Assembly (NCBI RefSeq): GCF_003991155.1 | Contig: NZ_CP031293.1 | From: Escherichia coli | Lineage (GTDB): Bacteria; Pseudomonadota; Gammaproteobacteria; Enterobacterales; Enterobacteriaceae | Strand: one strand, 5' to 3' | DNA: 64,000 nt | In this document: in pieces, positions 9,944-54,817 of the stretch | Layout: the number at the start of each line of letters is the position of its first letter | How positions within the stretch are numbered: the first letter of the stretch is position 1 | Made by a program: the position numbers and the translations under genes | Notes under the pieces: generated by a model | The model's input: the letters and a program-made list of their open reading frames with translations, nothing else | The model's database searches: none | Told to the model about the DNA's origin: nothing

Positions 9944-16007
<6,064 letters not shown>

Positions 16008-16043
16008 TTAATAATAAGTAATGTTTGCGCTGTAAATGTAGAT

Positions 16044-16059
16044 TGCAGGGTTCGTGCCA
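16044..16059 (-). promoter_or_regulatory. sigma54 (-24/-12) promoter candidate for astC: TGGCACGAACCCTGCA
   Basis: GG-N10-GC spacing, one mismatch to TGGCAC-N5-TTGCA; about 70 nt upstream of astC; ast operon is known to be NtrC/sigma54 controlled. Confidence 0.55.
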
Positions 16060-16416
16060 GCCAGTGATAAAAGTGCATAAACGGCGGAGGCTAACTGAAA
16101 ATCAAGGAGTTATAACCACATCATATGCATTTAAAGTGCATATAAAGTGAATACGTTTGCGATGTGGGTGAATAAAAAGAATAAAAAACGCAATGTTATG
16201 CAGAAGTAAAATATAATTCTGGAATTGTGATCATTGACGAAATTTACTGGAAATTACTGCGCCATTCTGACGCAGCGCGCACCAAAAGCGGGCATTTTTT
16301 GCGCCATCGTTGACATCATTAACAACCATCGATCAAATCACTTAACAACAGGCGGTAAGCAAAGCGAAATTCTGCTACCATCCACGCACTCTTTATCTGA
16401 ATAAATGGCAGCGACT

Positions 16417-49249: not shown

Positions 49250-49565
49250 AATTAATCATTCCTTAAACAAATGTTTAGCGGGCGACAAAGTTTACCCGTC
49301 AATACATCGAAACCCAACCTTTTTACGTTTTCATTTTTTAAAGTAACTGTTTAATTTTCCTGACGCAGATGACACCACGCTTACAGCCAAATGAATTTAG
49401 CGTTACCGGCGACCCTATTGTTTACATTAATTATGCAAAATTTATGGATGAGTTGTTGATATGCCATTGAAATTAAGAAAGCCGTGCAGGCAAGTTTTCC
49501 ATTTGCCATCTACGCTTAATTTTGAAGGTGTATCACCGGGCACGTTGTTCTCATCGTCAATAAAA

Positions 49566-49581
49566 TGGCATGAGAGTTGCT
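49566..49581 (+). promoter_or_regulatory. sigma54 (-24/-12) promoter candidate for yeaG: TGGCATGAGAGTTGCT
   Basis: GG-N10-GC spacing; about 100 nt upstream of yeaG, a known nitrogen-starvation (NtrC) gene. Confidence 0.5.
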
Positions 49582-53161: not shown

Positions 53162-54637
53162 ATGATTCGGTCAACACGTATTTCCCTGGGGTTATTCTTT
53201 AATTATTTTTTATCGTCAACGAAAATTGATCCTGGTCAAAACTATATATCTCTGCCATCAATAAAATCCAGCACTCACATTGCTCTCCTTTTTATGGCTT
53301 CTATGGGTACACAAAAATTAAAAGCTCAAGGCTTTTTAGTTTTCAGCTTATTGCTGACGTTAATTTTATTTTGCATTACTACTTTATATAACGAAAACAC
53401 GAATGTAAAACTCATCCCACAGATGAATTACCTGATGGTTGTTGTGGCTTTGTTTTTCCTTAACGCCGTCATTTTTCTTTTCATGTTAATGAAGTATTTC
53501 ACTAACAAACAAATTTTACCAACACTCATTTTAAGCCTTGCATTTTTAAGTGGCCTTATCTATTTAGTTGAAACCATTGTAATTATCCATAAACCAATCA
53601 ACGGCAGTACACTGATCCAGACAAAGTCGAATGATGTTTCTATTTTCTATATTTTCCGCCAACTCAGTTTCATTTGTTTAACCTCGCTGGCGCTCTTTTG
53701 TTATGGGAAAGACAACATCCTTGACAACAATAAGAAAAAAACTGGCATTCTGTTGCTGGCGCTGATTCCTTTTTTAGTTTTTCCCCTTCTGGCACACAAT
53801 CTGAGTAGTTATAACGCTGACTATTCTTTGTATGTCGTCGATTACTGTCCGGACAACCATACTGCGACCTGGGGAATCAACTATACAAAAATATTGGTTT
53901 GTTTGTGGGCATTTTTACTGTTCTTTATTATCATGCGTACACGATTAGCCAGCGAACTATGGCCGTTAATAGCATTATTATGTCTGGCATCGCTATGCTG
54001 CAACTTACTTCTACTGACTCTGGATGAGTATAATTACACCATCTGGTATATCAGTCGCGGGATTGAAGTTTCCAGTAAACTGTTTGTTGTGTCTTTTCTG
54101 ATTTATAACATTTTTCAGGAACTGCAACTCTCCAGCAAACTGGCAGTTCATGATGTGCTGACCAATATTTATAATCGGCGCTACTTTTTCAACAGCGTAG
54201 AGTCATTATTGTCGCGACCTGTTGTTAAGGACTTTTGTGTCATGCTGGTTGATATTAATCAGTTCAAACGCATCAATGCCCAATGGGGACATCGTGTGGG
54301 TGATAAAGTGCTGGTATCAATTGTCGATATTATCCAGCAAAGCATCCGCCCCGATGATATTTTAGCGCGACTGGAGGGTGAGGTGTTTGGCTTGCTATTT
54401 ACCGAACTCAATAGTGCCCAGGCAAAAATCATTGCGGAACGTATGCGTAAAAATGTCGAACTCCTGACCGGCTTTAGTAACAGATATGATGTTCCTGAAC
54501 AAATGACCATCAGTATTGGCACGGTTTTTTCAACGGGTGACACGCATAATATCTCGCTTGTCATGACGGAAGCAGATAAAGCCTTACGCGAAGCGAAAAG
54601 CGAGGGGGGCAACAAAGTGATTATTCATCATATTTAA
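53162..54637 (+). CDS. yeaI: membrane-anchored GGDEF-domain protein with degenerate active-site motif
   Basis: 491-aa ORF; N-terminal multi-TM region; GGDEF domain with RLEGEVF in place of RxGGDEF. Confidence 0.85.
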   Translation: MIRSTRISLGLFFNYFLSSTKIDPGQNYISLPSIKSSTHIALLFMASMGTQKLKAQGFLVFSLLLTLILFCITTLYNENTNVKLIPQMNYLMVVVALFFLNAVIFLFMLMKYFTNKQILPTLILSLAFLSGLIYLVETIVIIHKPINGSTLIQTKSNDVSIFYIFRQLSFICLTSLALFCYGKDNILDNNKKKTGILLLALIPFLVFPLLAHNLSSYNADYSLYVVDYCPDNHTATWGINYTKILVCLWAFLLFFIIMRTRLASELWPLIALLCLASLCCNLLLLTLDEYNYTIWYISRGIEVSSKLFVVSFLIYNIFQELQLSSKLAVHDVLTNIYNRRYFFNSVESLLSRPVVKDFCVMLVDINQFKRINAQWGHRVGDKVLVSIVDIIQQSIRPDDILARLEGEVFGLLFTELNSAQAKIIAERMRKNVELLTGFSNRYDVPEQMTISIGTVFSTGDTHNISLVMTEADKALREAKSEGGNKVIIHHI

Positions 54638-54817
54638 GTGCAAAAATATTCAGAGCCATGCTTTTTGCGTGGCTTTTGCATACAATTTATTACTATTACC
54701 CCTAAATTTCCCCTCCCCAGCGGCGCAGAGATGAGTATAATTAGCGCCCCTGTGCCAGGCCGCAATCGAACTTTATCTGGTTTTCTCGTTTCACTAACCG
54801 AAGGAGTGCCATTTATC

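Follow-up and report, generated by a model that had tools for sequence, protein, structure and literature searches.

A sigma-54-type -24/-12 element upstream of astC in Escherichia coli very probably corresponds to the known NtrC-activated promoter astCp2

Results

Genes and features of the astC-xthA region

The stretch of DNA analysed here (64 kb, called the window throughout) belongs to the E. coli chromosome, and in 5424 of 5426 complete E. coli genomes a segment of 551 bp around the motif under study has its counterpart in the astC-xthA intergenic region, with 95-100% identity. When the RefSeq annotation of strain K-12 is mapped onto the window, astCADBE (9944..15971), the arginine succinyltransferase operon of arginine catabolism, is found on the minus strand, with xthA divergent on the plus strand. 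In agreement with the open reading frames, astC occupies 14751..15971, with its ATG at 15971, and is followed on the same strand by astA (13720..14754), astD (12245..13723), astB (10905..12248) and astE (9944..10912), all of them downstream of the promoter described below. Rfam revealed no RNA family between 15000 and 17500, the sole match having an E-value of 0.37 and falling far under the gathering score.

In the spacer between astC and xthA, the minus strand reads TGGCACGAACCCTGCA from 16059 to 16044, with GG at 16058-16057 and GC at 16046-16045 and 10 nt between them. Compared with the consensus TGGCAC-N5-TTGCW, the first block is matched in 6 of 6 bases and the second (cTGCA) in 4 of 5, which adds up to 10 of the 11 specified bases. 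The GG-N10-GC element of the sigma-54 type that the first-pass annotation had proposed for this position is thereby confirmed by the sequence, and its distance from astC, given there as about 70 nt, was measured as 72 nt from the 3' end of the motif to the ATG. The element is intergenic and lies on the astC strand. Judging from the geometry of the motif, transcription would start at an A at 16033 on the minus strand, 12 nt downstream of the -12 C, with a predicted leader of 62 nt. The same position is obtained with the rule used in the published sigma-54 ChIP-seq study, where the start is placed 19 bp downstream of the motif centre (1830087) and at a distance of 62 from astC. For this comparison, window positions were converted to U00096.2 with an offset of +1,814,035, which was checked with the independently published sequence of an ArcA site, and the motif centre 1830087 corresponds to position 16052 of the window. 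A mapped start incompatible with the element, which the first-pass annotation had named as a refutation, was not encountered in the literature consulted; a further start deduced near 16004, dealt with below, probably belongs to a separate promoter.

The astC element is the best sigma-54 match in the window

A search of the window with the degenerate consensus TGGCACNNNNNTTGCW, allowing one mismatch, gave 6 matches versus 3.4 expected. Since such a pattern on its own proves nothing, trained matrices and comparative positions were used instead. The sigma-54 log-odds matrix was trained on 40 further intergenic ChIP-seq sites of E. coli, each represented by its 17-mer (Bonocora et al. 2015, Table 1), and the sites of astC and yeaG, both of which lie in the window, were left out of the training. 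With this matrix, the 17-mer CTGGCACGAACCCTGCA of the astC promoter (16044..16060, minus strand) reached 17.95 bits, while the training sites had a median of 15.6 and a range of 8.9-21.5. It ranked 1st of the 127,968 window positions on both strands, which is the outcome of the RpoN matrix scan that had been suggested in the first-pass annotation. An equal or better score was obtained by chance 0.16 times per simulated 64 kb, counting both strands.

The second-best score (16.43 bits) belonged to TTGGCACGGTTTTTTCA at 54516..54532 on the plus strand, a sequence in the 3'-terminal part of cdgI (yeaI) that precedes the stop codon of this gene by about 100 nt and has dgcJ downstream of it. The third-best (16.06 bits) was that of ATGGCATGAGAGTTGCT at 49565..49581 on the plus strand, which is a second known sigma-54 promoter (ChIP-seq site OS18) and whose predicted start is 93 nt upstream of an open reading frame of 644 amino acids annotated as the protein kinase YeaG. 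The published antisense sigma-54 site OA03 (cedA) was not found within the 64-kb window. The sigma-54 motifs of astC and yeaG (16052 and 49573) are 1,212 bp closer together here than in the K-12 coordinates of the ChIP-seq paper, implying either about 1.2 kb of extra sequence between them in K-12 or a deletion in this strain.

The promoter is conserved across Enterobacteriaceae

Scanning one genome per species gave a set of 80 astC loci that represents over 20 genera of enterobacteria, including Escherichia, Citrobacter, Salmonella, Enterobacter, Klebsiella, Raoultella, Kosakonia, Cedecea, Buttiauxella and Kluyvera. All 80 loci contained TGGCA(C/T)G-N5-TGCA, with its first base 87-92 nt upstream of the ATG. 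The element occurred in 20 versions, which differed almost solely in the spacer: in the 74 sequences from outside Escherichia, conservation of the -24 and -12 bases was 90-100%, versus about 50% for the central bases of the spacer. Fixed blocks at a fixed spacing, separated by a spacer that drifts, are the pattern expected from selection on a sigma-54 promoter.

Directly upstream of the -24 element, the sequence TTTATGCACTTTT (TTTATGCAyTTTT; 16070..16083, minus strand) is almost invariant across genera, and its motif TATGCACTTT is repeated 60 bp upstream, at 16132..16141. Candidate roles for this stretch are an ARG half-site and a contact for the alpha subunit of the polymerase. Outside the core promoter, no upstream sequence is more conserved than a block of about 50 bp, AAATTTCG-N5-GATCACAATTCCAGAATTATATTTT..CTGCATAA, at 16196..16245 on the minus strand (approximately -212 to -163), which is nearly invariant and keeps a fixed distance from the promoter. 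Its GATCACA, at 16226..16232 of the window, was found at -198 to -200 in 77 of 79 loci, including 6 of the 8 loci in which xthA is not adjacent. The block fits the consensus sequences of ARG, CRP and Lrp partially at most. CRP was rejected for now, given that TCACA is the one half that fits, TTTCG in the conserved left half being unlike TGTGA. ArgR was likewise set aside, with a matrix score of only 6.6. On the plus strand, the same block contains a perfect TATAAT at 16212..16217.

Candidate sites for NtrC, ArgR and IHF upstream of the promoter

Two sequences with three mismatches each to TGCACC-N5-GGTGCA lie farther upstream, namely NtrC-like site C, TGCGTCAGAATGGCGCA, at 16258..16274 (centre about -233) and NtrC-like site B, TGCCCGCTTTTGGTGCG, at 16278..16294 (centre about -253). 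They are 20 bp apart, that is, separated by whole helical turns. A possible third and weaker site, site A (ATGTCAACGATGGCGCA, 16300..16316, centre about -275), was picked by eye and fits the consensus in its right half alone. Of the 80 orthologues, 54 had an NtrC-like site with up to 3 mismatches at -252 to -254, and 24 had one at -233/-234; the GC/TGC cores of sites B and C are invariant, and the GCA in the right half of site A is conserved. Taken singly, NtrC-like and ARG-like consensus sites were no commoner than chance when the window was compared with shuffled sequences. The published NtrC ChIP-seq interval (1830021-1830101, equivalent to 15986..16066 of the window) covers the core promoter and is about 200 bp away from the NtrC-like sites, which may reflect cross-linking through a DNA loop or a habit of peak calling. 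The intervals reported in that data set for glnK and gltI likewise coincide with the centres of sigma-54 motifs.

For ArgR, a matrix was trained on eight K-12 operators (carAB, argF, argA, argG, argR, argD, argE/C and argI), and its picks reproduced the classical boxes of these operators. In the first-pass annotation, TGAAT-containing repeats between 16100 and 16250 had been put forward as possible ArgR boxes. The repeats are indeed present on the plus strand, and on the minus strand they appear as ATTCA at 16152..16148 and within TTTATTCACC near 16170. Measured against the 18-bp imperfect palindrome WNTGAATWWWWATTCANW, one box in E. coli is within the range of the training operators (8.5-21.5): the minus-strand sequence ATTCACTTTATATGCACT at 16135..16152, centred at -110.5, whose score of 10.9 is at the low end of that range and is the third-best in the window. 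The remaining boxes score 6.6 or less and are thus under the training range, among them 16205..16222 (centre -180.5, score 6.6) and 16187..16204 (centre -162.5, score 6.5). Among the orthologues, boxes scoring at least 8.5 were found at -110 in 60 of 80, at -122 in 27 of 80 and at -162/-164 in 30 of 80. The tentative proposal of ArgR boxes is thus partly supported, by one site with an operator-like score and by weaker boxes that are seen again at corresponding positions in other genera; it does not extend to operator-like scores for the others in E. coli.

No canonical ARG pair, with a gap of 2-3 bp or 20-21 bp from centre to centre and both boxes in the training range, was found in the E. coli astC spacer, where the candidate boxes are spaced 10-11 or 18 bp apart. 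This result lowers the claim of a canonical operator and does not lower that of ArgR binding. We tentatively propose that degenerate ARG-like sites are present between about -100 and -185, unlike the 21-bp pairs of biosynthetic operators; here as for NtrC, the assignment of individual sites is deduced from sequence. The top ARG-box score of the whole window (15.2) was that of AGTGCAAAAATATTCAGA at 54637..54654, directly after the cdgI stop.

Between the ARG boxes and the promoter, AATCAAGGAGTTA at 16100..16112 on the plus strand (centre about -73) is an exact match to the IHF-type core consensus WATCAANNNNTTR. The 64-kb window has 5 such exact matches, and this one occurs at -72/-73 in 76 of the 80 orthologues. 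This putative IHF site may help activation. In the literature consulted, no statement on IHF at astC was found.

The leader contains an ArcA operator and probably a second promoter

The leader of the predicted sigma-54 transcript (15972..16032, minus strand) carries a Shine-Dalgarno sequence, GAGG, near 15978-15981. From +9 to +51 of this transcript, four 11-bp direct repeats on the plus strand (15983..16025) form an ArcA-P operator that is identical to the published sequence at 1830018-1830060. A 44-bp DNase I footprint of ArcA-P and a 10.6-fold derepression in an arcA mutant have been published for astC. This operator accounts for the fact that TTAACAT and TTATTTAC are invariant in the astC leader.

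The published footprint is numbered -22 to +22 from a start mapped by Fraley 1998. Combined with the position of the repeats, this numbering leads to a second start near 16004, about 29 nt downstream of the predicted sigma-54 start. It probably belongs to a second promoter (P1) of the sigma-S/sigma-70 type within the leader, which would explain why the sigma-54 promoter bears the name p2. By eye, TATTAT at 16016..16011 is a candidate for its -10 element; a consensus scan detected no convincing astC-directed sigma-70 promoter in the astC-xthA spacer. The mapped start and the ArgR and NtrC footprints, as we have them from citations, reportedly go back to the primary primer-extension and footprinting papers of Kiupakis & Reitzer 2002, Lu & Abdelal 1999 and Fraley 1998.

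Published occupancy and identity of the element

The sigma-54 ChIP-seq site OS17 of E. coli K-12 is CTGGCACGAACCCTGCA on the minus strand, with astC as the downstream gene and an FAT of 7 (Bonocora et al. 2015). Its peak centre (1830088) and motif centre (1830087) are 1 bp apart, its start was predicted 62 bp before astC, and it carries the flag 'C', which stands for experimentally confirmed in EcoCyc (Bonocora et al. 2015). In Salmonella LT2, the homologous site TGGCACGAATGCTGCAAT was bound by sigma-54 in ChIP-chip, and NtrC was named as the activator. NtrC ChIP-seq in nitrogen-starved cells lists astCADBE among the targets, with direct binding cited. Moreover, genomic SELEX (gSELEX) with the RpoN holoenzyme and with NtrC gave peaks at the astC-xthA spacer, astCADBE being listed as an NtrC target, and in the gSELEX paper astC is one of the few RpoN targets said to be confirmed by experiment. 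Synthetic constructs have also made use of the promoter, under the names astCp or astCp2, as a sigma-54 promoter that is weak and depends on NtrC. As for ArgR, the secondary literature on E. coli and Salmonella describes it, together with arginine, as an accessory, non-essential activator of the sigma-54-dependent ast operon.

Since the matrix scan, the comparison of 80 loci and the published ChIP-seq and ChIP-chip occupancy agree, we conclude, with a probability of roughly 95%, that the 16-base motif is astCp2, the published sigma-54 (RpoN)-dependent promoter of astCADBE, and that the model of a promoter activated by NtrC and assisted by ArgR applies to it. The nitrogen (NtrC) control that the first-pass annotation had linked to the element is likewise sustained by the sigma-54 ChIP-seq site OS17, the NtrC ChIP-seq and gSELEX data, the matrix scan and the 80 loci. 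The sigma-54 promoter of astC is already known, experimentally confirmed according to the EcoCyc flag, and belongs to textbook knowledge rather than being new.

Discussion

According to the model that we favour, RNA polymerase with sigma-54 would be parked as a closed complex on the -24 GG and the -12 GC (16058-16045). Under nitrogen limitation, NtrC-P bound to a tandem enhancer about 230-275 bp upstream would contact the polymerase through looping of the DNA, and ATP hydrolysis by NtrC would open the promoter, so that transcription would proceed from about 16033 through the 62-nt leader into astC. ArgR with arginine, sitting on the degenerate ARG boxes in the region from about -100 to -185, would play an accessory role by shaping the loop and raising the output when arginine is present, possibly assisted by an IHF-type bend at -73. 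In the leader, ArcA-P would repress the operon anaerobically, and a promoter of the sigma-S/sigma-70 type a few tens of bases downstream would serve in stationary phase. This mechanism fits the biology of the AST pathway, since the pathway releases ammonia from arginine.

Three other explanations were weighed. That the GG-N10-GC arose by chance in AT-rich intergenic DNA and that ast is expressed solely through sigma-S/sigma-70 has hardly any probability left: the one-mismatch consensus is as common as chance in the window, as the 6 matches versus 3.4 expected indicate, but the element has the top matrix score, it is invariant in 80/80 loci across genera while its spacer drifts, and it is occupied by sigma-54 in vivo in two species, so that conservation and ChIP already refute this explanation. 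We give an equally negligible probability to a genuine promoter whose activating enhancer-binding protein is not NtrC. Such a protein might be considered because the NtrC-like sites have 3 mismatches each and are unusually far upstream (-233 to -275), and because the centre of the NtrC ChIP interval lies elsewhere. However, astCADBE is listed by both NtrC ChIP-seq and gSELEX, reviews on Salmonella assign the promoter to NtrC, synthetic enhancer constructs with the astC promoter are driven by NtrC, and the positions of the NtrC-like sites are conserved.

Somewhat less remote, and still very improbable, is a sigma-54 site that acts mainly as a parked closed complex, occluding or modulating the downstream sigma-S/sigma-70-type promoter instead of being productive itself. 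The sigma-54 holoenzyme binds promoters in an inactive state, some RpoN-recognised promoters in the gSELEX study rose when RpoN or NtrC was removed, astCp2 is weak as a sigma-54 promoter, and the second start would be only about 29 nt downstream, so that the footprints of the two polymerases would overlap. Against this stand the flag of experimental confirmation, the NtrC-dependent reporter expression from the isolated astC promoter and the conserved NtrC-like enhancer upstream, and a transcript that depends on rpoN and ntrC and begins at about 16033 under nitrogen limitation has reportedly been described; besides, occlusion and promoter function are not mutually exclusive. We therefore keep the reading as astCp2, a productive promoter activated by NtrC.

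The astCp2 of K-12 (OS17) has the identical 17-mer, the same gene, the same predicted leader of 62 nt and the same astC-xthA context, and no difference from it could be detected; the strain studied here is another E. coli strain that is identical over the motif and the ArcA site. At the homologous position, the astC promoter of Salmonella Typhimurium LT2 (STM1303) carries TGGCACGAAtgCTGCA, which is bound by sigma-54 and assigned to NtrC and differs by two substitutions in the spacer; the operon order is written astCABDE in the Salmonella paper. Like astCp2, glnHp2 of E. coli is a weak NtrC-dependent sigma-54 promoter that is helped by a bending or architectural protein between enhancer and promoter. 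Nevertheless, glnHp2 needs IHF, whereas at astC the documented helper is ArgR with arginine and the upstream enhancer is far more distant (about -233 to -275). The archetypal NtrC-activated promoter glnAp2 shares with astCp2 the -24/-12 element, the tandem NtrC sites and the looping, but is far stronger. Its NtrC sites are also stronger and closer to the promoter than those at astC.

As a positive control, the locus is useful, because here a -24/-12 promoter and its regulatory logic were recognised from raw sequence. The astC comparison also illustrates the phylogenetic footprint of a genuine sigma-54 promoter, with invariant GG and GC, a constant spacing and a drifting spacer. That the control region holds architectural elements beyond NtrC, ArgR, ArcA and sigma-S, namely the IHF-type core at -73 and the block near -190 (GATCACA...CAGAATTATAT), seems to us rather doubtful. 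If this were true, and if the blocks are not footprints of ArgR, they would point to an extra bending or regulatory factor that activation requires when the NtrC enhancer is so unusually distant. The two conserved blocks left unassigned could be informative about the way in which an enhancer some 250 bp distant activates a weak promoter.
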